A DNA stretch of 64,000 nucleotides from assembly GCA_944392335.1 (NCBI GenBank), contig CALXWJ010000005.1, positions 9-64,008 on the forward strand, given 5' to 3'. Below are positions 1,711 through 45,607 of this stretch, piece by piece (positions within the stretch are counted from its first letter, which is position 1; each line of letters opens with the position of its first letter). The notes under the pieces are model-generated. The model did not search any database and had not been told where the DNA came from. It saw only the letters and a program-made list of their open reading frames with translations. The position numbers were made by a program, and so were the translations under genes. This DNA is from an uncultured Clostridia bacterium (lineage in GTDB: Bacteria > Bacillota > Clostridia > UBA1381).

Positions 1711-2234
1711 ATATTTGATGATACAAATCTTTTTGCAAATATTTTGGCTTTGCAAACGATAGTGTTATCAATCCTGATAAAAATTTGATAACATTGCGTC
1801 AGATAAGGCGGATAATATGAATGATATCAAATAGTACAAATACGAGAGCAAATATCTCCTATATAAATTTGTTTAAGTTTTGGATTTGAACGAAGAGTGG
1901 GAATGATGTTAAAAATGAAATTTTCGGCTTAAGCATACGATGTTTGTGATGTTAGTATCTTGAGCGGCAACGTCTTGACGTATTTGAATTATTCATTAAG
2001 AAATAGCTAACTGATTTTTACCGGTTAGCTTTTAACATATGTGCCGAGCAAAGCTTTACATGGCTTTGGTGTTCCAAACGACAATCTCGATTGTTTCGTA
2101 TTTAGGGAAAACCTGATATCACAAAAATGAAAATAAGCTTTTTAAAATTTTTATTATTGCCTGCCATGTTTATTTTTAGCTGTTTATTGGAATATTATGG
2201 ATATGAGTTAAATAATAAAAAGGAGCTGCAAGCT

Positions 2235-5200
2235 ATGCTTCAGATTAAGCACATTTGTAAACAATATAAAACCGGAAGTTTGGTGCAGAATGCTTTAAAC
2301 AACGTCAGTCTGAATCTTCGTGATAATGAATTTGTGGCCATTCTTGGTCCAAGCGGTTCCGGAAAAACCACCCTGCTCAATATTATAGGAGGACTTGACC
2401 GTTACGACAGCGGAGACCTCATTATTAACTCAATCTCCACAAAAAAATACAAAGACAGGGATTGGGATTCTTACAGAAATCATACTATTGGTTTTGTTTT
2501 TCAAAGTTATAACCTGATCCCCCACCAGACGGTACTGTCCAATGTGGAGCTTGCCTTGACCATTTCCGGTGTATCCAAGGCTGAGAGGAAAAAACGGGCA
2601 AAACGGGCTTTAGAGCAGGTAGGGTTAGGGGAGCAGCTGTATAAGAAGCCCAATCAGATGTCAGGCGGTCAAATGCAGCGTGTCGCCATTGCACGAGCTC
2701 TTGTAAACGACCCGGATATTTTGCTTGCCGACGAGCCTACAGGCGCATTGGACAGCGAAACCAGCGTTCAGGTTATGGAATTATTGAAAGAGGTGGCAAA
2801 AGACCGCCTGGTTGTCATGGTGACCCACAATCCGGAGCTTGCCGAGCGTTATGCTACAAGGATCGTGAATCTGAAAGATGGAACAATCCGTTCGGACACT
2901 GATCCATATGAGGTCAACGAGACCGATCAAAGTGCACCTGTCCATAAGAATATGGGAAAATCGTCAATGTCTTTGCTGACAGCGCTTTCCCTCAGCTTTA
3001 ACAATCTGCGGACGAAAAAGGCCAGGACAATTCTGACCTCCTTTGCAGGCTCTATCGGCATTATTGGAATTGCCTTGATCTTATCGATCTCCAATGGTGT
3101 AAACGGCTATATTAAAACGTTGGAAGAAGACACGCTTTCTGAGTACCCGCTTCAAATTCAAAACTCAACCATGGACCTTGCCTCCATGATGTCCGGCTCT
3201 TCTGCAAGCCGATCAGAAGACAGAATTGGAGAGGTCACGGTTTCCCAAACGTTGAGCAATATGTTCTCAAAGGTGGAACCCAATGACTTGGAATCTCTAA
3301 AACAATATTTTGACAGCGGCAGCAGTGGAATAGAACCATATACAAAGGCAATTGAGTATTCTTATAACATAGCGCCTCAAATTTTCAGCGTAGATGATGA
3401 CAGTGTCCGGCAGGTAAACCCCGACCGATCTTTTTCTGCATTGGGCATTGGCACAGATTCCGGAAGCTTCATGTCCTCACTGATGAATACGGATGTATTT
3501 TATCAAATGCCTGAGAACACAGAATTGTTTCGGGAGCAGTACGACGTAAAGGCCGGGCGCTGGCCGCAGAGTTATAATGAATGTGTGGTCGTCCTTTCTT
3601 CCAACGGCAGTGTCAGCGATTTTATGCTGTATACGCTGGGGCTTAGAGACCATATCGAATTGGATGAAATGATCCGGTCATTTCTTGAGGATGAAGCAGT
3701 AGATGCACCGGAAAATATGGGCTCGTACCGGTATGATGATTTCCTTGGCATCACTTTCAAATTGGTAAATGTATCGGATTATTATGAATATGACAATAGC
3801 TATAATGTGTGGAAGGATAAGTCGGATGATAAAACGTATATCCGGAATTTGGTCAGCAGCGGCGAAAACATTTCTATTGTTGGCGTAGTGCAGCCTGCGC
3901 AAGATGCCTCGGCCGCTATGCTCAGCATGGGTATTGCGTATCCGGCTTCTTTGACAGAACATATAGTGGAGCAAGCCGCAGTCAGCCCGATCGTTCAGGA
4001 ACAGATGCAAAATCCCGACATCAACGTGCTGACGGACAGCTCCTTTGGTGAGGACAGCCAACAGAGCCGTTTTGATGTAAACACTCTGTTTACAATTGAC
4101 GAAGATGCTTTGAAGAATGCGTTTTCATTTGATACCAACGTATTGAATGTTGATCTGTCGGACTATTTGGATATGGACAGCAGTTCTCTAAACCTGTCTG
4201 ATATGATTGATTTTGATAATATTACTTTTGATTTATCGGATTTGCCGGAGACGGACTTGGGCGATCTCATGGGGCAATTGGAACTTTCCATCTCACCTAA
4301 AGAGATTCAGCAGCTTGCGGCCGATCTCTTTCAAGGATATGATTCTTATGTATCAGAACATCCGGAGGCGGACTATTCCAGACTGAATGAATATTTCATA
4401 GCATATTTGCAAACGCCGCAGGTGCAACAGAGCATAAAAGACGAAATTGGACAAATTATCCAATCGGAAGCGGATGTGACCGTATTTCCGGAACAGCTGC
4501 AGATGTTGATACAGGATATTATGTCCGGATTCCGGGAGTATGCGTCTGCTAACGGGCTGACCGATCCGAAGCACTTTGGCGAATATCTGACAGAGTATTT
4601 GCAAACACCTGAAGTACAACAAAAGATCACAGAGGGCGCCGCTGATATTTTGCAGATAAGCGGCGATATTACGGCTTTTTCAGAGCAAATGCAGTTGTTG
4701 GTCAGCAATATTGTGACCGGCTATCAGGAATATGCCGCCGCGAATCAACTTCCAGACCCCAGAAAAATGGGTGAACATTTTGCCGCCTATTTAGAGACGT
4801 CGCAGGCCCGGCAGCAGATTGCCGATGGAACGGCCTCTCTTCTGGATATGGAAGCATTGCAGGCACAGATTTCCAATGTGTTAAGCGGTGTGCCCTCTTA
4901 CACCAATGCGATGACTCAGGCGATGCAAAATCAAATTTCCTCCGTTATGCATCAGGTAATGGGACAAATGTCGGCAAGTATGGGAAGTACTATACAGCAG
5001 GCGATGGGTCAATTGGAAAGCAATATGGAAAATGCTTTTCAATTTGACACAGACGCCTTTGCCGATGCCATCCGGATGAATATGAGTGAAGGCGAACTGG
5101 CCCAACTGCTGCGTTCGCTTATGTCCGGTGAAGATACGTCCTATAACACAAATCTAAGAAGCTTCGGGTATGCCGATTTAAAGAACCCAAGTCAAATCTC

Positions 5201-5762
5201 TATTTATCCGTATGATTTTGAGAGCAAGGCGGCTATCACTGAAATTCTTGATAATTATAACAGCCTCATGGAAGCACAGGGAGATGAAGGCAAGATGATC
5301 AGCTATACGGATATAGTGGGGACACTGATGTCCTCCGTAACTAAAATCGTGGACACTATCTCTTATGTCTTGGTTGCGTTTGTTGCGATTTCGCTTGTTG
5401 TGTCGTCTATTATGATAGGTGTCATTACTTATATCAGCGTTTTGGAGAGGAAAAAGGAAATAGGTATTCTGCGTGCCATCGGTGCATCTAAACAAAATGT
5501 TTCGCAAGTATTCAATGCGGAAACCTTTATTATTGGCTTGTGTGCCGGCGTAATCGGTATTGGGCTGACGTTGATCCTTTTGGTCCCGGGAAATGCTCTC
5601 ATACATTCTCTTGCCGGGACAACTAATATCAATGCATCGCTCCCTGCTGCTTATGGAGCTATTCTGATTGTACTCAGTGTGGTTTTGACACTGATCGGCG
5701 GTCTGATCCCATCCAAAAAAGCGGCCAAGAGCGATCCGGTCACAGCATTGAGGGCAGAATAA
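2235..5762 (+). CDS. Fused ABC ATPase / FtsX-type (MacB-like) permease with a very large extracytoplasmic domain
   Basis: Walker A GPSGSGKTT, signature MSGGQMQR and Walker B ILLADEPT, followed by TM1, a soluble region of about 760 aa, and three C-terminal FtsX-like TM helices. Start moved from the ORF-track 2127 to ATG 2235 (MLQIKHI...) behind RBS AAAGGAG. Confidence 0.85.
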   Translation: MLQIKHICKQYKTGSLVQNALNNVSLNLRDNEFVAILGPSGSGKTTLLNIIGGLDRYDSGDLIINSISTKKYKDRDWDSYRNHTIGFVFQSYNLIPHQTVLSNVELALTISGVSKAERKKRAKRALEQVGLGEQLYKKPNQMSGGQMQRVAIARALVNDPDILLADEPTGALDSETSVQVMELLKEVAKDRLVVMVTHNPELAERYATRIVNLKDGTIRSDTDPYEVNETDQSAPVHKNMGKSSMSLLTALSLSFNNLRTKKARTILTSFAGSIGIIGIALILSISNGVNGYIKTLEEDTLSEYPLQIQNSTMDLASMMSGSSASRSEDRIGEVTVSQTLSNMFSKVEPNDLESLKQYFDSGSSGIEPYTKAIEYSYNIAPQIFSVDDDSVRQVNPDRSFSALGIGTDSGSFMSSLMNTDVFYQMPENTELFREQYDVKAGRWPQSYNECVVVLSSNGSVSDFMLYTLGLRDHIELDEMIRSFLEDEAVDAPENMGSYRYDDFLGITFKLVNVSDYYEYDNSYNVWKDKSDDKTYIRNLVSSGENISIVGVVQPAQDASAAMLSMGIAYPASLTEHIVEQAAVSPIVQEQMQNPDINVLTDSSFGEDSQQSRFDVNTLFTIDEDALKNAFSFDTNVLNVDLSDYLDMDSSSLNLSDMIDFDNITFDLSDLPETDLGDLMGQLELSISPKEIQQLAADLFQGYDSYVSEHPEADYSRLNEYFIAYLQTPQVQQSIKDEIGQIIQSEADVTVFPEQLQMLIQDIMSGFREYASANGLTDPKHFGEYLTEYLQTPEVQQKITEGAADILQISGDITAFSEQMQLLVSNIVTGYQEYAAANQLPDPRKMGEHFAAYLETSQARQQIADGTASLLDMEALQAQISNVLSGVPSYTNAMTQAMQNQISSVMHQVMGQMSASMGSTIQQAMGQLESNMENAFQFDTDAFADAIRMNMSEGELAQLLRSLMSGEDTSYNTNLRSFGYADLKNPSQISIYPYDFESKAAITEILDNYNSLMEAQGDEGKMISYTDIVGTLMSSVTKIVDTISYVLVAFVAISLVVSSIMIGVITYISVLERKKEIGILRAIGASKQNVSQVFNAETFIIGLCAGVIGIGLTLILLVPGNALIHSLAGTTNINASLPAAYGAILIVLSVVLTLIGGLIPSKKAAKSDPVTALRAE

Positions 5763-5780
5763 AAAGGAGGAGTGTGTACT

Positions 5781-7028
5781 ATGGCTTATAATGAGCTTAT
5801 AAAGAATTTTGAAAAGGTCAGAACATATATGCGTGAGTTTTATGTGTATGGCTTCAAGAGTAGAACTGAATATGATGCCAAAAGCGCACGCTCCTATGAT
5901 GATGAGCGTCGCCGGCTTGAGAGCTGGCTGGGAGACTATATGCGCTTTACTCAAACTGCTGAAGGTAAAAATGTCTTCTTATCGGTTGACAGCCGTGTCA
6001 CTCGAAAGAATCCCTTTTATAAAGCGTGGAAAGCAAAGAGCTTTACGGATGGAGATATCGCACTGCACTTTGCGATCTTTGATATCCTGTATACACCGGA
6101 AATCAAGAAAACTCTTACTGAGCTTATTGAGGAAATCGACGAGCGTCTGTCCTTGGGAATGACCTTTGATGAATCTACCCTCAGAAAGAAACTGAAGGAG
6201 TATGCCGGGGAGGGTATCATTCAGATTGAAAAAGAGGGACGTAAGGTTTTATACAGCAGAAGCCCGGATACCGATATTTCGGCGTTGGACGATGTGATTG
6301 ACTTTTTCAGCGAGGTGGCTCCCTGCGGAGTTATCGGTTCTTTCCTGCAGGACAAGCGTCCCGAACACGATGAGCTATTCTCGTTCAAGCATCATTACTT
6401 AACTCAGGCTATGGACAGTGATGTGATGGCAGAACTCTTTGAGGCGATCCATGAGCACAGATACATTACCATCGACAATCTGGAAAAGCGCTCGGGCAAA
6501 GTGAGGGCAATTTGCCTGGTACCTCTCAAAATCTTTATAAGTGCTCAGAACGGCCGCCAGAATCTGATTGCATTCCATGAGAAAACTAACCGCCTTAACT
6601 CATACCGATTGGATCATATATACAATGTCCGGATCGAGAACGAGACCTGTGAGAAGTTTGATGATTTGCGGGAGGCTCTTTGCAAGGCGGAATGTTATAT
6701 GTGGGGTGTGAATGGCAAATGGAACATTAAGCATGCGGAACATGTGGAGTTTGAAATCAAGATCGAAGACGACGAGCAATTCATAGTTCGCAGATTAGAG
6801 CGTGAGAAGCGATGCGGCCGTATTGAAAAAATTGACGGGAATCATTATCGTTACATAGCGGATGTGTTTGACACAACGGAAATGCTGCCATGGATTCGTA
6901 CCTTTATTTCTCGTATTACAAAAATGAACTTTTCTAACCGGACAGCTGAGAACAAATTTAAGTCTGACATCCGGGAAATGTATCGTATGTACGGTATTGA
7001 CGGAGGTGACGATCATGATATTCAGTGA
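5781..7028 (+). CDS. WYL-domain transcriptional regulator (HTH-WYL-WCX architecture), paralog 1
   Basis: WYL-like segment VPLKIFISAQNGRQNLIAFHEKTNRLNSYRLDHIYNV followed by a C-terminal WCX-like domain. ATG 5781 lies 10 nt after GGAGG and 18 nt after the ABC stop codon. Confidence 0.7.
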   Translation: MAYNELIKNFEKVRTYMREFYVYGFKSRTEYDAKSARSYDDERRRLESWLGDYMRFTQTAEGKNVFLSVDSRVTRKNPFYKAWKAKSFTDGDIALHFAIFDILYTPEIKKTLTELIEEIDERLSLGMTFDESTLRKKLKEYAGEGIIQIEKEGRKVLYSRSPDTDISALDDVIDFFSEVAPCGVIGSFLQDKRPEHDELFSFKHHYLTQAMDSDVMAELFEAIHEHRYITIDNLEKRSGKVRAICLVPLKIFISAQNGRQNLIAFHEKTNRLNSYRLDHIYNVRIENETCEKFDDLREALCKAECYMWGVNGKWNIKHAEHVEFEIKIEDDEQFIVRRLEREKRCGRIEKIDGNHYRYIADVFDTTEMLPWIRTFISRITKMNFSNRTAENKFKSDIREMYRMYGIDGGDDHDIQ

Positions 7029-7923
7029 GTTATACTCTGCCTATTATAATACGGTTGCAAAAATTATTGAGGCATCATTTGATCCGGAGGCTACAGAGAA
7101 AGACCTTCAGATGTGCGTTGTCAAGGAGGCTTTCTCTGAAAGTGTGCTGACCATTTTACCTGCATTGAAATCGGGTAAATGGCCGTTGCTGAAAGAAGAC
7201 CTTTCTCCTGTTCTGCTCCATAAGCCGACAATGCCGCTGACTATCCTTGAAAAGCGATGGCTAAAAGCGATTGCTGATGATCCGAGAGTAAAGCTGTTTG
7301 GTATTGAGTTTCCTGAGTTGGATGATGTAGAGCCTCTTTTCACAAGGGATGATTACAAAATTTATGATCAGTATGCGGATGGGGATCCTTTCGAGGATGA
7401 GAGCTACATCAGGAATTTCCGGCTGATGCTCTCGGCGATCAAGAATGACCGTCCCGTTAGAATCACAATAATGAACAGACACGGAAAAGAAGTGCGGGTC
7501 CGGTTCTATCCCAAGGGCTTTGAATATTCCGTAAAGGATGACAAGCTCCGTATAATTGCCACAGGATGCAAATTCAAGCAGTTCAACCTGGGAAGAGTGG
7601 TAAGCTGTGATTTCTACAATGGATATGGCCCGTGGAGAGAGAAGCCGCGGGTTGAATGCCGGAAGGAGCTTACCTTGCTGATAACAAATGAGCGTAATGC
7701 GCTGGAAAGAGCGATGCTCCACTTTGCGCATTTTGAAAAGCAGGCTGAACGCCTTGAGGACAATAAGTACATACTGCGTTTGAAGTATTATGAAAATGAT
7801 GAAACCGAAATCGTTATTCGTGTGCTTTCATTCGGACCATATGTGAAGGTTTTAGAGCCTCAAAGCTTCGTAAATTTAATAAAAGAACGATTGATTTCTC
7901 AAAAAAGTTGCGAATTAAGATGA
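7015..7923 (+). CDS. WYL-domain protein, paralog 2 (PafB/PafC-like pairing)
   Basis: WYL-like segment VRVRFYPKGFEYSVKDDKLRIIATGCKFKQFNLGRVVSCD plus a WCX-like C-terminus. ATG 7015 follows GGAGG and overlaps the upstream gene by 14 nt. Confidence 0.65.
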   Translation: MIFSELYSAYYNTVAKIIEASFDPEATEKDLQMCVVKEAFSESVLTILPALKSGKWPLLKEDLSPVLLHKPTMPLTILEKRWLKAIADDPRVKLFGIEFPELDDVEPLFTRDDYKIYDQYADGDPFEDESYIRNFRLMLSAIKNDRPVRITIMNRHGKEVRVRFYPKGFEYSVKDDKLRIIATGCKFKQFNLGRVVSCDFYNGYGPWREKPRVECRKELTLLITNERNALERAMLHFAHFEKQAERLEDNKYILRLKYYENDETEIVIRVLSFGPYVKVLEPQSFVNLIKERLISQKSCELR

Positions 7924-7939
7924 GTTCGCAACTTTTTTT
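7907..7939 (+). terminator. Intrinsic terminator after the WYL pair
   Basis: GTTGCGAA-loop-(G)TTCGCAAC hairpin followed by T7. It overlaps the stop codon of the second WYL gene. Confidence 0.7.
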
Positions 7940-7941
7940 CC

Positions 7942-7970
7942 GTGAAATAAAAGGTTATGATCTGTATAAT
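7942..7970 (+). promoter_or_regulatory. Candidate promoter of the ncRNA-array/rtcB transcript (GTGAAA-17 nt-TATAAT)
   Basis: Perfect -10 at 7965-7970 preceded by TG. The -35 at 7942-7947 is weak. Confidence 0.4.
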
Positions 7971-8012
7971 AATAGTCGTAAGATGCAGACAACAAATGGC
8001 AGCCACGTGCAG

Positions 8013-8100
8013 AAGGTACTTACAGCAATCCTTCCAATCACAGAGAAGAATTAAAGATATTTGGAGTCGGCGGGCAAAAGTCCGTTAAAGAATGTACCTT
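8013..8100 (+). ncRNA. Stem-closed RNA module A (Y-RNA-like candidate)
   Basis: Closing stem AAGGTAC (8013-8019) / GTACCTT (8094-8100). The 5' arm is followed by the ACAGCAAT box shared with modules C, D and E. Confidence 0.4.
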
Positions 8101-8108
8101 GTTGTTAA

Positions 8109-8188
8109 AGATGCATACAAAAACCGTAGTCAATGATGACACGCTTCTCCTTGAGTTGGCGTGAGGGTGATGCCGAAAGACTGCATCT
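8109..8188 (+). ncRNA. Stem-closed RNA module B
   Basis: Closing stem AGATGCA / TGCATCT and internal hairpin CACGC..GCGTG followed by a GAGGGTGATG box also present in module D. 8181-8188 can alternatively pair with 7981-7988. Confidence 0.35.
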
Positions 8189-8191
8189 GAA

Positions 8192-8286
8192 AAGGCACCG
8201 ACAGCAATGACGAATAGCTAAGTGGTTATAGCAGGCGGTTTATATCCGTCCCTCGCGGGTCCGAATCCCGCTTCAAATGGTGCCTT
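8192..8286 (+). ncRNA. tRNA-mimic RNA module C (YrlA-like candidate)
   Basis: Closing stem AAGGCACC / GGTGCCTT with an ACAGCAAT box. Contains a D-arm-like GCTA-AGTGGTTA-TAGC, an anticodon-arm-like GGCGG-TTTATAT-CCGTC, and a T-arm GCGGG-TCCGAAT-CCCGC (8255-8271). The acceptor-like region pairs by only 3 bp and there is no CCA. Confidence 0.6.
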
Positions 8287-8295
8287 GTTTTATAA

Positions 8296-8413
8296 AAGAC
8301 GCGAACAGCAATTACATATTTTATATTACTGAATATTGACCTGATGACCGGTACTTGCTTTCGGGGCAAGCGAGGGTGATGTAAATGTCATCACATGTAA
8401 AAAAGCGCGTCTT
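8296..8413 (+). ncRNA. Stem-closed RNA module D
   Basis: Closing stem AAGACGCG / CGCGTCTT with an ACAGCAAT box. Internal hairpins CTTGC..GCAAG and GTGATG-TAAATGT-CATCAC, plus a GAGGGTGATG box. Confidence 0.45.
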
Positions 8414-8420
8414 GTAATTA

Positions 8421-8533
8421 AAGGCATCTACAGCAATGAATTGGAAAGATATGTCGGAGCACATCCATTGCCGCGATCGGTAACACTTGACACCGACGAA
8501 CTATTATACGGGTTCAAATCCCGGTGATGCCTT
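8421..8533 (+). ncRNA. tRNA-mimic RNA module E (YrlA-like candidate)
   Basis: Closing stem AAGGCATC / GATGCCTT with an ACAGCAAT box. Canonical T-arm CGGG-TTCAAAT-CCCG (8509-8523) sits directly before the 3' strand of the closing stem. The module ends 31 nt before the rtcB ATG. Confidence 0.6.
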
Positions 8534-8564
8534 GCAGAAAAAATGTGCAGAAAGGAGCAGCACA

Positions 8565-9773
8565 ATGTTTGAAATCAAAGGAAAATCAAATACCGCGATA
8601 TGCTATGCTACAGTAGTTGAAGATGAAGCCATTGAGCAGATCCGGAGAATGTGTGACTATGATTTTACAAGCGGATCCAAGATCCGGATTATGCCGGATG
8701 TCCATGCCGGAAAGGGATGTACAATCGGTACTACTATGACGATTACAGACAAAGCAGTACCCAACATCGTCGGCGTCGATATAGGATGCGGCATGTATAC
8801 CGTGGAGCTCGGACAGGTCAATATTGATTTTGAGAAAGTAGACGAAGCTGCTCACTTTATTCCCGGCGGCAGAGATGTCTGGGAGGGCCGTATGGAGCGT
8901 TTCGATCTTACCGGCCTTTGCTGTTATAGAAATTTGAAGAATACAAAGCGTCTGGAAAGGAGTTTGGGTACTTTAGGCGGCGGCAACCATTTTATCGAGA
9001 TAGACGCTTCATCAGACGGCACCAAATATCTGGTTATACACTCCGGCAGCCGTAACTTGGGTAAGCAGGTCGCTGAGTATTATCAGCAGCTTGCCATTGA
9101 CCTGAATTCCGGAAAGGAAGACTACTTTAAAAAGAAAGATGAGCTGATACTTACTTATAAAGAGCAAGGCCGTCGTGCGGAGATTCAGACTGCTTTGAAG
9201 GCTATGGAAAAGGAGTGGCAAGCAAAAGAGCCTACTATTCCTGCAGATCTTTGCTACCTTTACGATTCCTATCTGGAGGATTATTTGCACGATGTTGAGA
9301 TCTGCCAGCAGTTTGCAAAGCGCAGCCGTGAAAGAATGGCACAGATCATCTTAGAGCATACCGGAATGGCTGCTCTGTCAGCGTTTCACACAATACATAA
9401 TTATATCGATACTGAGGAGATGATCCTGCGTAAGGGCGCAATTTCTGCACATAAAGATGAGCTTGTTTTGATCCCTATCAATATGAGGGACGGAAGCGTG
9501 CTGGCAAGAGGAAAGGGAAATCCTGATTGGAACTTCTCCGCGCCGCATGGCGCCGGCAGGATCATGTCAAGAGCCAAGGCAAGGGAGACGCTTGACCCGG
9601 AGGAATACAAGATGACAATGGAAGGTATTTATACCACTTCCGTAAATGAAGCAACAATCGACGAAGCGCCGATGGCGTATAAGTCTCTTGCCGATATCAT
9701 AGGTGATATCCGGGAGTCCGTCGATGTGGTAGAAATTTTGAAACCTATTTATAACTTTAAGGCGTCGGACTAA
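8565..9773 (+). CDS. rtcB: RtcB-family RNA 3'-phosphate/2',3'-cyclic phosphate ligase
   Basis: Motifs MPDVHAGKG, GVDIGCGM, GGGNHFIE, HSGSRNLG and PHGAGR. Start set to ATG 8565 (MFEIKG...) behind RBS AAAGGAG; the ORF-track extension from 8487 runs through RNA module E. Confidence 0.92.
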   Translation: MFEIKGKSNTAICYATVVEDEAIEQIRRMCDYDFTSGSKIRIMPDVHAGKGCTIGTTMTITDKAVPNIVGVDIGCGMYTVELGQVNIDFEKVDEAAHFIPGGRDVWEGRMERFDLTGLCCYRNLKNTKRLERSLGTLGGGNHFIEIDASSDGTKYLVIHSGSRNLGKQVAEYYQQLAIDLNSGKEDYFKKKDELILTYKEQGRRAEIQTALKAMEKEWQAKEPTIPADLCYLYDSYLEDYLHDVEICQQFAKRSRERMAQIILEHTGMAALSAFHTIHNYIDTEEMILRKGAISAHKDELVLIPINMRDGSVLARGKGNPDWNFSAPHGAGRIMSRAKARETLDPEEYKMTMEGIYTTSVNEATIDEAPMAYKSLADIIGDIRESVDVVEILKPIYNFKASD

Positions 9774-9810: not shown

Positions 9811-11274
9811 ATGTTAAACTATTTGAAAGAAGAATCTGATATGACTCTGACCGAAAACGGTGCAGCAGCCTATAAAAGCACCTCATCCTGTTGTTTGGAT
9901 CTGTTTGCCGTCATTGGTGCAATCCGCAGAGAGTCTGAGAAGGAGATCATTGACCGGTTTATAAAGGCGTATGCTGAGAACAGCGATATCGCGATGAAAA
10001 TCCTGTTTTTCGGCCGTGATGTGCGCGGAGGTTTGGGTGAGCGCCGGGTGTTTCGTGTTATCCTGAACTGGCTGGCAGATCACGAGCCGGAGTCTTTGCG
10101 TAAAAATATCGCATTGATTCCGGAGTACGGCCGATTTGATGACCTGGCGTCCTTGATTGGTACTGCATGCGAGGAGGATGCAATGAAGGTGATCCGTGAT
10201 CAGTTAAAAAAGGATATGGAGAAAGATGCAGAGGTTTCTTTACTTGCAAAATGGCTTCCTTCTGTCAACGCGACCAACAAGGAGACTGTACATATTGGTA
10301 AACGAATCGCCCGTTATCTTGGCATGAGCGATGCTCAGTATCGTAAGACCCTCGTGGGGCTGCGCAAAAAAATCCATATCGTGGAGAACAACCTGCGTGA
10401 AAAAGATTACTCTTTTGACTACTCCAAGCAGCCGTCAAAAGCAATGTTTAAGTATCGAAAAGCGTTTGCAAGAAACGACGGTGAGCGTTACCGGCAGTTT
10501 CTGGAGCAGGTGCAAAACGGTACAGCCACCATACATACCGGTACTTTGATGCCGTATGATATCATCGCTCCATGCTTTGGAGACTTGTCTGCAAGACGCA
10601 GAATACCTGAATCCGAACGCAGAGCAATGGATGTTTCATGGAATTCTTTAGAGGATTTCGGTACAAACGAGAATGCTCTCGTAGTTGTTGACGGTTCAGG
10701 TTCTATGTATGCCTATGACGGGCCTATGCCGATAGCAGTGGCATTGTCTTTGGGAATTTATTTTGCAGAGCGTAATACCGGAGTATTTCGTAACCATTTT
10801 ATTACTTTTTCCGAAAGACCTCAGTTGGTGGAGATCAAAGGAAGGGATATAGTTGAAAAGGTCAGGTACTGTGCTGAGTATAATGAGGTCGCAAACACTA
10901 ATCTTCAAGCTGTGTTCGAGCTGATTTTAAAGGCTGCGGTAAAACATTCTGTTTTGCAGGAGGAGATGCCTAAAAAGCTTTATATCGTTTCGGATATGGA
11001 GTTTGATAGTTGTATATGCAAAGCAGATGTCACCAACTTTTCATATGCGAAGAAGTTATTTGAAGACAATGGATACCATTTGCCTGAGATAGTGTTTTGG
11101 AATGTGGCAAGCAGAAATAGGCAGCAGCCTGTCACAAAAAATGAGATGGGTGTGGCGCTTGTTTCGGGCTGTACCCCAAGACTCTTTTCAATGGTAGCCG
11201 GTGGCGCAGCTTCCCCTTATACCGTGATGATGGAGATCATCGAGTCAGAGCGTTATGCGGTTATTTCCGCATAA
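9811..11274 (+). CDS. DUF2828-like protein with C-terminal vWA domain (possible divergent Ro/TROVE analogue)
   Basis: N-terminus LTENGAAAYKSTSSCCLDLF and FGRDVRGGLGER match my recollection of the DUF2828 family. MIDAS-like VVVDGSGSM at mid-protein, and VSDMEFD. RBS GGAGGG upstream. Confidence 0.65.
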   Translation: MLNYLKEESDMTLTENGAAAYKSTSSCCLDLFAVIGAIRRESEKEIIDRFIKAYAENSDIAMKILFFGRDVRGGLGERRVFRVILNWLADHEPESLRKNIALIPEYGRFDDLASLIGTACEEDAMKVIRDQLKKDMEKDAEVSLLAKWLPSVNATNKETVHIGKRIARYLGMSDAQYRKTLVGLRKKIHIVENNLREKDYSFDYSKQPSKAMFKYRKAFARNDGERYRQFLEQVQNGTATIHTGTLMPYDIIAPCFGDLSARRRIPESERRAMDVSWNSLEDFGTNENALVVVDGSGSMYAYDGPMPIAVALSLGIYFAERNTGVFRNHFITFSERPQLVEIKGRDIVEKVRYCAEYNEVANTNLQAVFELILKAAVKHSVLQEEMPKKLYIVSDMEFDSCICKADVTNFSYAKKLFEDNGYHLPEIVFWNVASRNRQQPVTKNEMGVALVSGCTPRLFSMVAGGAASPYTVMMEIIESERYAVISA

Positions 11275-11293: not shown

Positions 11294-11326
11294 AAAGAGG
11301 TGATGGATGCAAGCATCACCTCTTTT
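11294..11326 (+). terminator. Intrinsic terminator after the rtcB-DUF2828 pair
   Basis: AAAGAGGTGATG-loop-CATCACCTCTTT hairpin followed by a short T run. Confidence 0.7.
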
Positions 11327-11581: not shown

Positions 11582-12478
11582 TTAATGATTTTTTTTGTAT
11601 TCTTTCGGCAGCATTTGAAAGTAGCCTTTAAAAGCAGTTGAAAATTTGCTTTGACTGTCATAACCCACAGCTGATGCGACTTCAGCAATACTCATATTTG
11701 ATTCCAGCAGCATTTTAGCCGCTTCCCTCATCCGGTGTTCTTTCATATGTGCGGCAATAGATGTCCCGTAAACAGATTTAAACAACGATTTCATTGTAGT
11801 AGGATTGATGAAATATTGCTTTGATAATTCCTCAATGGTGAAACGCCGGTTGAGATTGTGCAAAAGTTGTTCATGAATTTTGCGTATTACTTCTATTTGA
11901 TCAGTTTGATACCCTGTTATACGATGACCGGAGATATTTTCTGCTTGATAAAGATAAAGCAGCAGCTCAAGCACCTTTATTTTTTGATATGCCAATTGCA
12001 TATTCATCGGTTGATTGTAAAAAAACTGAAAGATACATTCTGTCTGTTCATTTCCCGTCAGAGAGATAAAAGTCTCATTTTTACATAGTTTTTCATACAG
12101 TGTAGTGCCGGTGATCCCTGTTTCAAGCAACAGCTGCGGCGGATTTTTTGTCAACTCATTCAAATCAATATAAATCATAATGCCTTCATAACAGTTATTT
12201 GGCAGGTTAATTTCAGAGTCAGCACATAATTTCATTGTATGGATAGAAAAGTCTCCAGCACCTAGATAAACATAGTTTCCTTTTTCCAACTTCCAACCGA
12301 TTCGCCCGCTGTGACAATAATTAATTACCATAATATGGTCGTATTGTTTATGATGAATGGAAAAATTATTCCCTGTAAGGGATAAATAACGCAATTCTAT
12401 TCCCGAAAAGAGGAGAATTGTGTTTATATCCTCAATACAAGACAACTTTTGTTGTATTTGACTTAGTTCTTGTTTCAT
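11582..12478 (-). CDS. AraC-family transcriptional regulator (N-terminal cupin-like sensor)
   Basis: C-terminal double HTH (..FTIEELSKQYFINPTTMKSLFKSVYG.. / ..SIAEVASAVGYDSQSKFSTAFKGYF..). Start set to MKQELSQ behind AGGAG. Confidence 0.8.
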   Translation of the reverse strand: MKQELSQIQQKLSCIEDINTILLFSGIELRYLSLTGNNFSIHHKQYDHIMVINYCHSGRIGWKLEKGNYVYLGAGDFSIHTMKLCADSEINLPNNCYEGIMIYIDLNELTKNPPQLLLETGITGTTLYEKLCKNETFISLTGNEQTECIFQFFYNQPMNMQLAYQKIKVLELLLYLYQAENISGHRITGYQTDQIEVIRKIHEQLLHNLNRRFTIEELSKQYFINPTTMKSLFKSVYGTSIAAHMKEHRMREAAKMLLESNMSIAEVASAVGYDSQSKFSTAFKGYFQMLPKEYKKNH

Positions 12479-12494
12479 TGTTGTATCTCCTAAA

Positions 12495-12863
12495 TTATCG
12501 GTTTGGACAGGCAACCTCAATAACCTTCTCTATCATTTTATGAAGCAAGCGGCTTTGCTCCGTGTCTGATGCGTGATAATAAACCTCTTTTCCATCTCGA
12601 CGGCTTGTAACTAACCCGCTGCTGCGAAGCAGCCGCAGGTGATGTGAAACTGCCGGGCTGGATATATCCAGCATTGCGGAAATATTGATAACACATTCTT
12701 CACAGTGGCATAAAAGCCAAAAAAGCCTGATTCGTGTTGTGTCACCCAATTGCTTAAAAATGTCAGCAATCATTTGAAATTTCTCAATATTGTTTAATTC
12801 TTTCTTTATGCTGCGAGAAATGGTTTCATCGTTGTGCTTGTGTGGTAATATATTATTTTTCAT
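12495..12863 (-). CDS. ArsR/SmtB-family metal-sensing repressor (CadC-like)
   Basis: Motifs LGDTTRIRLFWLL, CEECV and ISSPAVSHHLRLLRSSGLV. Start set to MKNNILP behind AAGAGG. Divergent from the metal ATPase genes. Confidence 0.8.
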   Translation of the reverse strand: MKNNILPHKHNDETISRSIKKELNNIEKFQMIADIFKQLGDTTRIRLFWLLCHCEECVINISAMLDISSPAVSHHLRLLRSSGLVTSRRDGKEVYYHASDTEQSRLLHKMIEKVIEVACPNR

Positions 12864-13028
12864 ATTTATACCTCTTTTTCTCCCGATTAGAAATGCTTTT
12901 CTCCCTTTCGGCAAGAAGAACATTCAAAGTATTGACTTCTTTGCATATTGATATTATACTATAGATACAACAATTAAACAAGTATTTAATCGTAAAATTA
13001 ATAAAAAATTCAGAAAGGAAGATCATAA

Positions 13029-13247
13029 ATGAAAAAAACTTATAAAATTGAAGTGGACTGTGCAAACTGTGCTAATCTGATGGAAGATGCTGCCCGTAAA
13101 ACAAACGGCGTACAGAACGTTACAGTAAACTTTATGACACAGAAAATGATCGTTGAGTTTGACGACGGACAGGAGCAGCAGGATGTTATGCAGAGAGTTA
13201 TCGCTGCCTGCAAAAAAGTAGAGCCGGACTGTGAAATTTTTATGTAA
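13029..13247 (+). CDS. Heavy-metal-associated (HMA) domain protein
   Basis: 72-aa ferredoxin-like fold pattern with a metal site DCANCA. Sits immediately upstream of the P1B ATPase. Confidence 0.7.
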   Translation: MKKTYKIEVDCANCANLMEDAARKTNGVQNVTVNFMTQKMIVEFDDGQEQQDVMQRVIAACKKVEPDCEIFM

Positions 13248-13358
13248 TATAGACTGTTTTTGACTAATGCACTTTGAATACGGTCATGGCAGTTTTAAGG
13301 TGTTATTTTCACTGCACAACAATTAAACAATTGAGCAATTTTTGAAGGGAGTTTTTAT

Positions 13359-15374
13359 ATGCAAGAACTAATAATAAACATATTGTTAGGTGTTGTTATC
13401 TTAACAGCTCTGATACTTCTTGCCGTTATCGGCAGCCGCAAGAATGGTATGACAAAAAAACAAAAAACGATTATGGTGCGTATTTTGATTTCTTCAGCTA
13501 TGCTGTTGGGATTGCAGTTTCTCTCGTCAGAAATGTTTTCACAGCTTGACGAATATCTGTTTTTGTCAGCAGGACGTTGGATGCGCTTTATTTTATATTT
13601 GATCGACTATTTTATTATCGGTTATGATATTTTGAAAAAAGCTTTCAAAGGAATACTTAATCGCCGGGTATTTGATGAAAATTTTTTGATGGCAGTTGCA
13701 ACTGTAGGGGCATTGGCATTAGCGGTGTATGAAAACGGAGATTATTTGGAAGCTATTGCGGTTATGTTGTTTTACCAAATCGGAGAATGGTTTCAGAGCT
13801 ATGCTGTAGGAAAAAGCCGCCGAAATATCAGCGATCTGATGGATATCCGCCCTGATTACGCTAATATTGAGAGAAATGGAACGATAGAACATGTTGCTCC
13901 TGATGAAGTTGGAATTGGCAGCGTAATCGTAGTGCAGCCGGGTGAAAAGGTGCCGATTGACGGTATTATTGTTGAAGGCAATTCCAGCTTGAATACAAGT
14001 GCTTTGACAGGCGAGAGTATTCCTCGTGAGGCTAAGGCCGGCGATGAGATAATCAGCGGCTGTATCAATATGACCGGCGTTTTGAAAATTCAAACTACAA
14101 AAGAATTTGAAGAATCCACGGTTTCCAAAATATTGGATTTGGTTGAGAATGCCAGTTCCAGGAAGTCCAGGTCAGAGAGCTTTATTTCAAGATTCGCAAA
14201 AATTTATACGCCTGCTGTGTGTTACAGCGCGTTGGCTTTAGCAATTTTCCCTCCGTTGATCCGTATGCTTGCAATGGGATTATCTGCTGATTGGGGAACG
14301 TGGATATACAGAGCTTTGACATTCCTTGTAATAAGCTGTCCGTGCGCGCTTGTTATCAGTATCCCTCTTAGCTTTTTTGCCGGAATCGGCGGAGCAAGCC
14401 AGGCAGGAATTTTAGTAAAAGGCTCTAACTATCTGGAAACGCTTTCAAAAGTAAAAACAGTTGTATTTGACAAAACGGGAACACTTACACAGGGCGTTTT
14501 TGAAGTAAACGGAATTCATCATAATGAAATGGAAAATGCAAAGCTCATTGAGTATGCTGCACTGGCGGAAAGCGCCTCGTCGCATCCAATCAGCAAGAGC
14601 TTGCAGCGGGCTTACGGAAAAGAGATCGATCGTTCCCGTGTAAGTGATATTCAGGAAATCAGCGGCAACGGTGTTATTGCTAAAGTAGACGGTATCGAGG
14701 TTGCCGCAGGCAATGATAAACTGATGAAGCAGCTCAACATCGCATATATAGACTGCCATAGTACGGGAACGATCATTCATATGGCAATCGGAGGTGAATA
14801 CAGCGGACATATTGTTATTTCCGATATTGTAAAGCCCCATTCGAAGGAAGCGGTTTCTTCTTTGAAGGCAGAAGGTGTTGAAAAAACGGTTATGCTGACC
14901 GGTGATGCAAAAAAGGTTTCTGAGCAGGTTGGTGCATCTCTTGGTATTGATACCGTTTACAGTGAGCTTCTTCCTGCGGATAAGGTGTCTAAGGTTGAAG
15001 ATTTACTGAAGACGAAAACCCCAAATGCAAAATTGGCTTTTGTAGGTGACGGTATCAATGACGCACCGGTATTGTCAAGAGCAGATATTGGAATCGCAAT
15101 GGGCGCACTGGGATCGGATGCCGCAATCGAGGCGGCAGACATTGTTTTGATGGACGATGATCCTATAAAAATCTCAAAAGCAATTAAAATTTCGAGAAAA
15201 TGTTTACGAATTGTATATGAGAATATTGCTCTGGCATTGGGAATCAAGTTTGCCTGCTTAATATTGGGCGCTTTAGGTATAGCAAATATGTATTTGGCAA
15301 TTTTTGCTGATGTAGGCGTAATGATTATTGCGGTACTCAACGCGATTCGCTGTCTGTACGTGAAAAAGCTGTAA
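13359..15374 (+). CDS. P1B-type heavy-metal (Cd/Zn/Co-type) translocating ATPase
   Basis: Motifs TGES, SCPCALVISIP (CPC), DKTGTLT and GDGINDAP. Confidence 0.9.
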   Translation: MQELIINILLGVVILTALILLAVIGSRKNGMTKKQKTIMVRILISSAMLLGLQFLSSEMFSQLDEYLFLSAGRWMRFILYLIDYFIIGYDILKKAFKGILNRRVFDENFLMAVATVGALALAVYENGDYLEAIAVMLFYQIGEWFQSYAVGKSRRNISDLMDIRPDYANIERNGTIEHVAPDEVGIGSVIVVQPGEKVPIDGIIVEGNSSLNTSALTGESIPREAKAGDEIISGCINMTGVLKIQTTKEFEESTVSKILDLVENASSRKSRSESFISRFAKIYTPAVCYSALALAIFPPLIRMLAMGLSADWGTWIYRALTFLVISCPCALVISIPLSFFAGIGGASQAGILVKGSNYLETLSKVKTVVFDKTGTLTQGVFEVNGIHHNEMENAKLIEYAALAESASSHPISKSLQRAYGKEIDRSRVSDIQEISGNGVIAKVDGIEVAAGNDKLMKQLNIAYIDCHSTGTIIHMAIGGEYSGHIVISDIVKPHSKEAVSSLKAEGVEKTVMLTGDAKKVSEQVGASLGIDTVYSELLPADKVSKVEDLLKTKTPNAKLAFVGDGINDAPVLSRADIGIAMGALGSDAAIEAADIVLMDDDPIKISKAIKISRKCLRIVYENIALALGIKFACLILGALGIANMYLAIFADVGVMIIAVLNAIRCLYVKKL

Positions 15375-45530: not shown

Positions 45531-45607
45531 TGGTCGGGATGACAGGATTTGAACCTGCGGCCCCTACGTCCCGAACGTAATGCTCTACCAAACTGAGCCA
45601 CATCCCG
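45531..45607 (-). tRNA. tRNA-Pro (anticodon CGG), CCA encoded
   Basis: The reverse complement CGGGATGTGGCTCAGTTTGGTAGAGCATTACGTTCGGGACGTAGGGGCCGCAGGTTCAAATCCTGTCATCCCGACCA folds as a cloverleaf: 7-bp acceptor stem, GCTC/GAGC D stem, anticodon loop TTCGGGA, and T loop TTCAAAT. Confidence 0.95.

Follow-up and report, generated by a model that had tools for sequence, protein, structure and literature searches.

Y RNAs are modular: a stem formed by their 5' and 3' ends bears the binding site for Ro60, which contacts mainly the 5' strand, and in bacteria only that strand is conserved. In Salmonella, Rsr, YrlA/B and RtcB are encoded together in the rsr-yrlBA-rtcBA operon (Chen et al. 2014, PMC4201824; Wang et al. 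2018, bioRxiv 10.1101/312249). RNAs of the YrlA type are expected within about 4 kb of the gene for a TROVE-domain Ro60 orthologue and on its strand. YrlA mimics tRNA in circularly permuted form and lacks an anticodon loop: a protein-binding stem takes the place of the anticodon arm, its acceptor stem forms a closed hairpin, and the parts follow one another as T-AS-D, i.e. T arm, acceptor stem, D arm (PMC4201824; bioRxiv 10.1101/312249), while GNCGAAN0-1G has been proposed as the motif that contacts Rsr (Chen et al. 2014, PMC4201824). The Salmonella operon is activated by an anticodon nuclease that leaves YrlA uncut, and YrlA has been proposed to be a competitive inhibitor; tRNA fragments activate the RtcR system. 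Another tRNA-like RNA found next to RtcB is the Band-7-associated b7a-tRNA (Burroughs & Aravind 2016, as cited in the YrlA structure preprint). Here, we consider a 64,000-nucleotide stretch of DNA from an uncultured Clostridia bacterium (GCA_944392335.1, contig CALXWJ010000005.1, positions 9 to 64,008; from this point on, the window), in which five RNA modules, A to E, precede the genes for RtcB and for a DUF2828/DUF7788 protein. An earlier reading of the same letters (the original prediction) had proposed five tandem stem-closed modules in an rtcB leader, four of them sharing a box and two of them mimicking tRNA. We put at roughly 70% the probability that the modules form a Y-RNA-like array which partners a Ro60 paralog, the DUF2828 protein, and is co-transcribed with rtcB and the DUF2828 gene.

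RNA modules in the window

The array lies on the same strand as the DUF2828 gene, 1.3-1.8 kb upstream. It consists of four intact small stem-closed RNAs and one decayed copy, and one of the intact RNAs is tRNA-shaped. All five predicted closing stems were recovered in the minimum free energy (MFE) folds of the isolated modules, at the positions proposed. The predicted common box was likewise found: ACAGCAAT begins 9 nt after the start of the 5' strand in A, C, D and E, with ACAGCAA at 8022, 8201, 8305 and 8430, while B carries the variant ACAAAAAC at the equivalent position. The spacers between modules are 3-9 nt long and AU-rich.

Module A (8013..8100, plus strand, as are all modules of the window) is closed by AAGGTAC (8013-8019) and GTACCTT (8094-8100), with its box at 8022 and an inner hairpin, GGCGGGC-AAAA-GTCCGTT. 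It scores 22.0 bits with R1, the covariance model introduced below, and has an orthologue at the same array position in the Clostridial locus L024. Module B (8109..8188) has the stem AGATGCA (8109-8115)/TGCATCT (8182-8188), the box ACAAAAA and a 3' end, GCATCT-G, that is one T short; it is absent from the 300 R1 matches listed. Its orthologues in L024 (4509-4591) and L022 (1717-1799) align with a canonical ACAGCAA and with GCATCTTG, relative to which the window copy has changed GC to AA within the box and lost one T. Module B is therefore a canonical module that has degenerated rather than a type of its own. Module C (8192..8286), the tRNA-like member, has an 8-bp closing stem, AAGGCACC (8192-8199)/GGTGCCTT (8279-8286), and its box at 8201. 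Module D (8296..8413; R1 score 29.0 bits) is closed by AAGACGCG (8296-8303) and CGCGTCTT (8406-8413), has its box at 8305, and contains the hairpin CTTGC/GCAAG and a distal hairpin, GTGATG/CATCAC. Across 11 positional orthologues, this distal 6-bp hairpin of the D subtype shows compensatory changes at five of its six pairs, with a UGAAAnn loop in most. Module E (8421..8533; R1 score 30.4 bits), with the stem AAGGCATC (8421-8428)/GATGCCTT (8526-8533) and the box at 8430, carries a T arm, CGGG-TTCAAAT-CCCG (8509-8523), which lies 2 nt from the 3' strand of the closing stem and gives a weak match to the tmRNA T arm in Rfam. Short orthologues of 65-66 nt are found in L003 (4658-4722) and L004 (3989-4054). 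Since the T arm is all that E has of a tRNA, to describe it as mimicking tRNA was too strong.

The module order had been taken to suggest duplication of a two-module unit. This is not supported. Close relatives retain the order A-B-C-D-E, with modules present or absent, and the similarity of B to D is weak (z 2.2). On inspection, the higher similarity of C to E (z 6.2) is put down chiefly to the T arm and core that they share. The element said to link B and D, GAGGGTGATG, does occur in both, but this identity is absent from the orthologues. To illustrate the variation in content, L022 has B-C-D-E and L066 C-D, L001 carries D-E behind two other modules, and L024 has A-B-C and a truncated D fused to the ribosome-binding site (RBS) of rtcB. 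In this last locus (L024, ~4700-4758), a D-type module is represented by its 5' part (AAGACGCGAACAGCGATTATATATCTTTATATTACTAA), joined straight to the RBS; the rest of D and all of E are gone, an apparent deletion which implies that the arrays are remodelled by such events.

The search of the Rfam library with tRNA and Y RNA models that was proposed with the original prediction bore out the tRNA half only: module C passes as a tRNA, whereas no Y_RNA match is returned at E<=10, and tRNA is the one credible Rfam 15 family at that cutoff across 7850-8650. Open reading frames (ORFs) in the module region amount to 20-48 aa, plus an extension of RtcB from TTG-8487. The earlier rejection of both has held, as none of the short frames is conserved and the RtcB start at ATG 8565, with its AGGAG, agrees with the starts of the tblastn alignments.

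Conservation and covariation of the modules

The DUF2828 protein has thousands of homologues, mostly in Clostridia and from metagenomes as well as genomes, and the loci nearest to that of the window belong to Oscillospiraceae, Christensenellales and other Clostridia. A bacterial set of 80 loci, one genome per species (L001-L080), was chosen via DUF2828 and makes 81 sources with the window. The rtcB gene is found in 58 of the 80 loci, rtcB and the DUF2828 gene occur in either order, and whichever comes first is preceded by a gap of 0.2-1.8 kb. ACAGCAA is concentrated in this gap, on the gene strand only, in 1-8 copies per locus. In a test of fixed geometry, the 7 nt ending 2 nt before each box were compared with the sequence 25-250 nt downstream, only a perfect Watson-Crick complement being counted as closure. 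Such closure was found for 205 of 312 boxes, vs 0-6 of 312 at control offsets and 1 of 94 boxes on the reverse strand, an enrichment of at least 30-fold over shifted offsets and opposite strand alike. The pattern is far beyond chance. When G-U pairs and three offsets are allowed, the scan yields about 0.75 chance closures per box, and the matches of this relaxed version were therefore dropped in favor of the perfect fixed-geometry closures.

The resulting catalogue holds 310 modules from 79 of the 81 sources, 1-9 per locus and 47-232 nt in length (median 84), all on the forward (gene) strand and upstream of DUF2828/rtcB. The two sources lacking modules, L032 and L047, are contigs cut off either at whichever gene comes first or a little upstream of it. 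The consensus, A-AAGRYRC-NN-ACAGCAA-H ... A-rich ... N-GYRYCUU-G-U, surrounds a variable insert. Compensatory substitution in the closing stems of homologous loci, which had been named as a check on the modules, is evident, as the 3' strand matches each of the 5' sequences AAGGCAC (77), AAGACGC (42), AAGGCGC (37), AAAGCAC (28), AAGATGC (27), AAGGTGC (21) and others. BLAST of the inserts against the catalogue returns orthologues for the tRNA-like part only; insert sequences evolve too fast, so subtypes were traced by position and structure.

These results bear on the simplest alternative, that the modules are chance inverted repeats or part of a region coding for small proteins. Single-sequence folding z-scores of the isolated modules, which range only from -1.1 to -2.6, and the ORFs of 20-48 aa are what such an explanation would lead one to expect. 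It is already refuted by the closure controls, by conservation of the feature in 79 of 81 sources in company with no conserved ORF, and by covariation, and we regard it as almost certainly wrong.

The tRNA-shaped module

The claim that module C is tRNA-like, with D, anticodon and T arms, is borne out. Positions 8212-8274 match the Rfam tRNA model RF00005 at 40.9 bits (gathering score 29), over model positions 5-66, which cover the three arms and leave out the acceptor stem. The body consists of a 3-bp acceptor-proximal stem (GAA/TTC), a D arm, an anticodon arm with the loop UUUAUAU, and a T arm. These 3 bp are all that stands in place of a 7-bp acceptor stem, being followed by an internal loop and the closing helix; there is no CCA, and ARAGORN calls no tRNA at module C. 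The original prediction had assigned to C the established layout of YrlA. This does not fit, as C and its 26 homologues keep the D-anticodon-T order of a normal tRNA with a 7-nt anticodon loop, and the closing stem of C sits at the site of the acceptor stem. In module C the string GACGAA precedes UAG; homologues do not retain it. Anticodon loops among the homologues look authentic, with CUGAAAA and C/UUCAUAC (including CUCAUAC) recurring.

The alignment of the 27 C-type modules was examined over five helices, namely the 8-bp closing, 3-bp acceptor-proximal, D, anticodon and T helices. Pairing is found in 95.4% of cells, vs 38-46% when the 3' partners are slid. Changes on both sides are seen at 17 of 25 pairs, covariation supports all five helices, and in four of five measures the observed value was reached by no shuffle. 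The covariance model built from this alignment, R1, gives 44 matches in the bacterial set that score 60 bits or more, with module C of the window at 102 bits; it also reaches non-tRNA modules through local alignment of the common core. Only about a quarter of all modules have any tRNA-like element, 225 of the 310 being without a T-loop or D-arm motif.

In six loci, ARAGORN finds a genuine tRNA-Phe(GAA) within the array beside a module: L009 12-87, L012 5796-5871, L014 5771-5846, L019 1170-1245, L021 509-584 and L061 5789-5864. The tRNA of L012 has an encoded CCA and ends 1 nt before a tRNA-like module whose anticodon arm also carries CUGAAAA. A further observation concerns L068 (2827-6991, Clostridiales), where modules on both sides of the DUF2828 gene are followed by 14 tRNA genes in two clusters over ~2.6 kb, a phage-like arrangement on a contig labelled bacterial. 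Genuine tRNA genes of this kind (such as that of L012), phage modules situated within tRNA arrays, and a module C that exceeds the Rfam tRNA threshold might together suggest a decayed tRNA gene array, that is, pseudogenes or tRNA-derived repeats with no function of their own. We consider this very improbable. The majority of modules lack the T-loop or D-arm motifs, as just noted; the most conserved features (box, basal helix and trailing G) are not those of tRNA and extend across phyla; and all helices are maintained by compensatory changes, which are not expected of pseudogenes.

A modelled Ro60-like fold for the DUF2828 protein

The proposed protein partner of the modules, a DUF2828/DUF7788 protein (Pfam) of 487 aa, is encoded at 9811..11274 (+). 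An AlphaFold2 model of the protein, made with 54 homologues, has a predicted local distance difference test (pLDDT) score of 78 and a predicted template modelling (pTM) score of 0.63. When this model is searched against the PDB with Foldseek, the 12 best matches are all Ro60/TROVE structures, with E-values of 7e-8 to 2.4e-4 over 500-547 aligned columns, i.e. the full length. They include 9kop, Deinococcus Rsr (2nvo), Xenopus Ro (1yvr, 2i91 and 1yvp), a Thermus phage Ro60 (9l5y) and human Ro60 (9nfa, 9nep and 9nf8). Matches confined to the vWA domain begin at 3e-3 and cover ~200 columns. The DxSxS motif of the vWA domain is invariant (D294, S296 and S298). The protein thus models as a Ro60 fold, with a helical TROVE-like domain and a vWA domain. 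Its likeness to Ro is already recognised at the level of annotation and is not new here: PHROG 850 labels the family 'RNA-binding protein', and SEA-PHAGES labels the mycobacteriophage homologues 'Ro-like RNA binding protein'. No RNA partner or function is recorded for DUF2828 in the libraries searched.

Modules in phages and viral contigs

DUF2828 is present in 710 of the 50,697 cultured-phage records searched, including Felix O1-like, A511/P100-like, Tsamsa-like and KVP40-like phages and cluster L mycobacteriophages. Nine of these DUF2828 loci were examined. In six, the gene lies within ~1.5 kb of annotated tRNA genes, adjoining a large tRNA array in Tsamsa, LMLPA3 and Alf5; the Tyson stretch has no tRNA gene. 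The ACAGCAA box with its geometry occurs beside DUF2828 in eight of the nine; the signature extends to phages of six host phyla. Among same-strand ACAGCAA boxes, 17 of 31 are perfectly closed (7 bp), and all 17 closures are followed by G; on the opposite strand, one of four is closed. The closing-stem sequences are unrelated between phage lineages: AAGACAC in Bacillus phage Tsamsa; AGGAATC, AGAGAGC and AGGAAGC in Listeria phage LMLPA3; TGAGCGC and TGGTCAC in Mycobacterium phage Tyson; AGACCGT and AGACCAA in Escherichia coli phage Alf5; ATGGTAC and AGGGTAT in Campylobacter phage NCTC12673; AAGACAC, AAGTCTC and AAAGGAC in Staphylococcus phage S-CoN_Ph6; and AAGCGGC in Sinorhizobium phage phiN3. 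In Synechococcus phage B23, the gene strand lacks an exact ACAGCAA closure, but two stem-closed modules with a UCAGCAA box lie beside the gene. Modules are downstream of DUF2828 in the Staphylococcus and Mycobacterium phages and among tRNA genes in Alf5 and Tsamsa. A permuted, YrlA-like domain (T arm, hairpin, D arm) is seen in phage modules at L201 4239-4361, L203 ~7519-7640 and L204 8420-8545. At the Rfam gathering threshold, the nine module-bearing phage loci return tRNAs only.

Two observations on the genes of these phages may be added. In Listeria phage LMLPA3 (L202 8836-12557), an RtcB-type ligase, a 'tRNA amidotransferase' and a second RNA ligase follow within 5 kb of DUF2828. In Staphylococcus phage S-CoN_Ph6, CDS0028 (L207 6510-6599), a tiny 'hypothetical protein', overlies an apparent ACAGCAA-box module and is probably a mis-annotation.

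Mycobacterium phage McGee provides a point of reference. Its gp233 matches Pfam TROVE (9e-50) and vWA_Ro60 (4e-54), whereas the 'Ro-like' proteins of Tyson and Alf5 match DUF2828/DUF7788. Upstream of gp233 are three tandem RNAs that read as YrlA-like, with three GGCCGA(A/G)-type motifs (GGCCGAAG, GGCCGAGAG), which belong to the GNCGAAN0-1G class of Chen et al., and, in the middle RNA, an evident tRNA-like domain of T arm, hairpin and D arm. The McGee locus has no stem-closed ACAGCAA module, its three same-strand ACAGCAA strings being inside annotated genes further downstream. This difference between the McGee Ro60 locus and the DUF2828 loci points to two Ro-like protein lineages, each with its own RNA signature. 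The apparent YrlA-like RNAs of McGee are overlaid by tiny 'hypothetical protein' coding sequences, gp231 and gp232 (L214 61-475), which are probably mis-annotations as well.

A pattern scan of viral-metagenome contigs for AAGGCACNNACAGCAA returned 120 stretches, 45 of which have a perfectly closed module. DUF2828 is encoded in 15 of those 45 and in three others; RtcB or WYL was found in none, and the modules there are interleaved with tRNA genes. In the bacterial set, RtcB is missing from the examined stretch in 22 of the 80 loci, most of which (including L026, L059 and L063) still have arrays. Because arrays persist in bacterial stretches without RtcB, and modules in viral stretches without RtcB or WYL, DUF2828 is the constant companion of the modules. 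The description of the array as an rtcB leader is not upheld, since the array tracks DUF2828 and elsewhere lies upstream of it, downstream of it, or inside phage tRNA arrays. In viral contigs without DUF2828 in the examined stretch, a recurrent ORF of ~335 aa was seen immediately upstream of module/tRNA arrays, at L106 503-1507, L140 3-962 (320 aa, at a contig end), L168 10557-11561 (-) and L176 3983-4987 (-). Two copies scanned had no Pfam match, and one copy, compared by profile, is unrelated to DUF2828.

Gene context of the array

The gene for RtcB (402 aa; Pfam RtcB, 1.5e-56) occupies 8565..9773 (+), with the RBS AGGAG at 8553-8557, and, with few exceptions among the 58 homologous loci that have RtcB, tblastn alignments start from residue 1. 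Upstream of the array lies a tandem, overlapping pair of syntenic genes, the first for a WYL-domain protein of 418 aa (5772..7028, +; Pfam WYL, 4.2e-5) and the second for a WCX-domain protein of 308 aa (6997..7923, +; Pfam WCX, 9.3e-6). The pair adjoins the array in 66 of the 80 homologous loci, in either orientation. Neither protein has a PDB or NCBIfam match, so nothing is claimed for them beyond the Pfam domains. The two would probably act as regulators; a PafBC-like heterodimer is only an analogy. A terminator-like hairpin, GTTGCGAA...TTCGCAAC followed by seven T (7908..7939, +; read by eye from the sequence), ends the WYL pair, and its 3' half is part of a conserved upstream motif. In the window this motif, GTTCGCAACTTTTTTTCCGTGA (7924-7945, +), is accompanied by a promoter-like GTGAAA (7942-7947), a 17-nt interval and TATAAT (7965-7970), scoring 10/12 in the promoter scan. 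In most loci of the bacterial set, GTTCGCA[AG]CTTTTTTTCC[GA]TGA with a -10-like hexamer ~17 nt later precedes the first module. Since loci with divergent WYL genes keep the motif (GTTCGCARCTTTTTTTCCRTGA) and the -10-like hexamer too, the motif is not merely the terminator of the second WYL-pair gene; it is a candidate operator/promoter, which would probably respond to the WYL/WCX pair. Neither reading of the sequence nor the consensus scan reveals a terminator between the array and rtcB. A second terminator-like hairpin, AAGAGGTGATG...CATCACCTCTT followed by TTTT (11295..11326, +), was recognised by inspection and is not listed by the consensus scan; it is likely the end of the operon.

The position of the array, between a promoter and the rtcB start, raises the question of a cis-acting leader that controls rtcB, be it a riboswitch, a T-box-like tRNA sensor or a protein-dependent attenuator, and tRNA-like shapes do recall tRNA-sensing systems. 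We consider such a leader quite improbable, as no terminator/antiterminator or RBS-sequestering element was found, the fold of the whole leader is unremarkable (z -1.18, a value that is not informative), and no Rfam cis-regulatory family matches. Moreover, modules vary from one to nine in number and are gained and lost between close relatives, and in phages they lie downstream of DUF2828 or among tRNA genes, where they precede no gene.

The same neighborhood permits another view, in which the modules, rather than being DUF2828 partners, serve the enzymes and regulators of the operon as substrates or signals, for instance as bait RNAs that are cut and then resealed or circularised by RtcB or as fragments that serve as the WYL ligand. 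The adjacency of rtcB (58 of 80 loci) and of the WYL pair (66 of 80), the activation of the analogous RtcR system by tRNA fragments, the complete anticodon loop of module C and the realistic loops of its homologues (CUGAAAA, CUCAUAC) are all in keeping with this, and it is compatible with DUF2828 binding the modules as well. Nevertheless, phage loci have modules and DUF2828 without RtcB or WYL, the exception being LMLPA3 with an RtcB-type ligase 1.3 kb downstream. The box is common to all modules, yet only around a quarter have a tRNA-like element, and the conserved geometry of box and helix points to a dedicated binding protein. The substrate or signal role is therefore rather unlikely to be the explanation of the modules.

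Of the other genes in the window, a single 1211-aa ORF (2127-5762) directly upstream of the WYL pair combines an ABC-transporter ATPase with a C-terminal FtsX-like permease. Downstream of the operon (11582-15374) are AraC-type and ArsR-type regulators on the minus strand and a P-type ATPase; the identical metagenome contig also has an HMA-domain ORF. The sole bona fide tRNA of the window is a tRNA-Pro(CGG) at 45531-45607 on the minus strand.

A proposed Ro60-like ribonucleoprotein

Our preferred reading, a Y-RNA-like array partnering the DUF2828 protein, draws on the conservation, covariation and geometry of the modules, their gene linkage and the modelled protein fold. Several results weigh against it. 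The Ro60 matches come from one AlphaFold2 model and have template modelling (TM) scores of 0.4-0.57 with a root-mean-square deviation of 8-12 Å. At the sequence level, DUF2828 matches neither TROVE (Pfam) nor any solved structure (profile vs PDB). The folding z-scores of the isolated modules, given above, are weak. In phages, shifted-offset controls close in 11 of 124 cases, which exceeds expectation, probably as a result of AT-rich sequence. Among viral stretches with a closed module, 30 of 45 have no DUF2828 in the 1-15 kb examined (of contigs of up to 400 kb), leaving linkage there unproven, and neither a TROVE nor a DUF2828-like protein was found when looked for in such stretches. Finally, the bacterial set is uninformative on absence of the RNA where the protein is absent, because its loci were selected by DUF2828.

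As to binding, processing and physiological role, we infer the following scheme. The promoter at ~7942-7970 would transcribe the modules together with rtcB and the DUF2828 gene, and the upstream WYL/WCX pair would turn the operon on. The modules may then be separated by cuts within the short AU-rich spacers. The constant part of each comprises the 7-8-bp basal helix of the 5' and 3' ends, two spacer nucleotides, a single-stranded ACAGCAA within the 5' strand, a 3' side rich in A and, beyond the helix, an unpaired G. It would be the platform to which the Ro60-like DUF2828 protein binds, much as Ro60 binds the conserved 5' strand of the Y-RNA stem. The variable part, which may be a tRNA-like body with an intact anticodon arm (C), a T arm (E) or another conserved hairpin (A and D), would recruit or imitate substrates, the tRNA-shaped ones acting as tRNA mimics or baits. 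The pathway would be one of RNA repair or surveillance, the RNA probably being tRNA, that makes use of RtcB.

A broader proposal, possible but doubtful at present, is that the ACAGCAA-box RNAs and DUF2828 are a second, undescribed lineage of Ro/Y-type ribonucleoprotein (RNP), parallel to Ro60/YrlA and distributed over gut Clostridia and phages of at least six host phyla. Its tRNA-shaped modules might be decoys or sentinels for anticodon nucleases, coupling an attack on tRNA by toxin or phage to RtcB repair and WYL-controlled induction. If true, the Ro/Y-RNA principle would reach a second protein lineage, with natural variants bearing up to nine cargo domains per locus. A defined and mutable RNA signature (7-bp helix, 2 nt, ACAGCAA, trailing G) beside its gene makes the DUF2828 protein a testable RNP, and tractable phages in which to do so include Felix O1-like, Listeria A511/P100-like and Staphylococcus phages and cluster L mycobacteriophages. 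The tRNA mimic supplied here, which is unpermuted and has an anticodon loop, bears on the role that Ro-type RNPs have beside RtcB, both in RNA repair and in the conflict of phage and host over tRNA. Current genome annotations leave these RNAs blank or overlay them with tiny hypothetical ORFs.

Comparison with known systems

No description of the RNAs was found in Rfam 15 or the searchable literature, although earlier mention in Burroughs & Aravind 2016 or Sim et al. 2020 is not excluded. Like b7a-tRNA, as that RNA is cited in the YrlA structure preprint, module C has a nearly authentic tRNA shape beside RtcB repair genes. Unlike b7a-tRNA as cited there, the modules are defined by box and basal helix and are mostly not tRNA-like, and the operon of the window has no Band-7 gene. 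In Tyson (L203 4095-4973), a gene for a band-7-like membrane protein lies 1 kb upstream of DUF2828, recalling the linkage of Band-7, b7a-tRNA and RtcB reported through the same citation.

With tRNA genes and phage tRNA arrays, the modules share the D, anticodon and T arms (module C), tandem packing with very short spacers and, in phages, interleaving. They differ in that module C has no 7-bp acceptor stem, discriminator, CCA or ARAGORN call and has an additional box and basal helix. As in the Y RNAs of metazoa and Deinococcus, a stem and internal loop are present, protein-binding and effector modules are separate, and there are several paralogues per genome; in contrast to them, a GGUCCGA-type bulged helix and an Rfam Y_RNA match (at E<=10) are lacking, and the protein family is another.

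The comparison with Y RNAs made by the original prediction was apt for the locus, with its neighbor modelled as a Ro60 fold and its analogy to rsr-yrlBA-rtcBA, but not for the layout of YrlA, which module C does not have, or its GNCGAAN0-1G motif, which these modules do not conserve. The partner is DUF2828/DUF7788 rather than a Pfam TROVE/vWA_Ro60 protein, and the motif is ACAGCAA, 2 nt after a 7-bp helix. The tRNA-like domains of the window and of most Clostridial copies are unpermuted with an anticodon loop, permuted versions occurring in phage members. Arrays reach nine modules, and the regulators are a WYL/WCX pair rather than RtcR. What is common to these modules and to YrlA/YrlB with Rsr is a set of tandem modular small RNAs on the same strand beside RtcB and a protein of Ro60 or modelled Ro60 fold, also in phages, each RNA having a stem of its 5' and 3' ends with a conserved 5' strand, and at least one RNA per locus having a tRNA-like effector domain.

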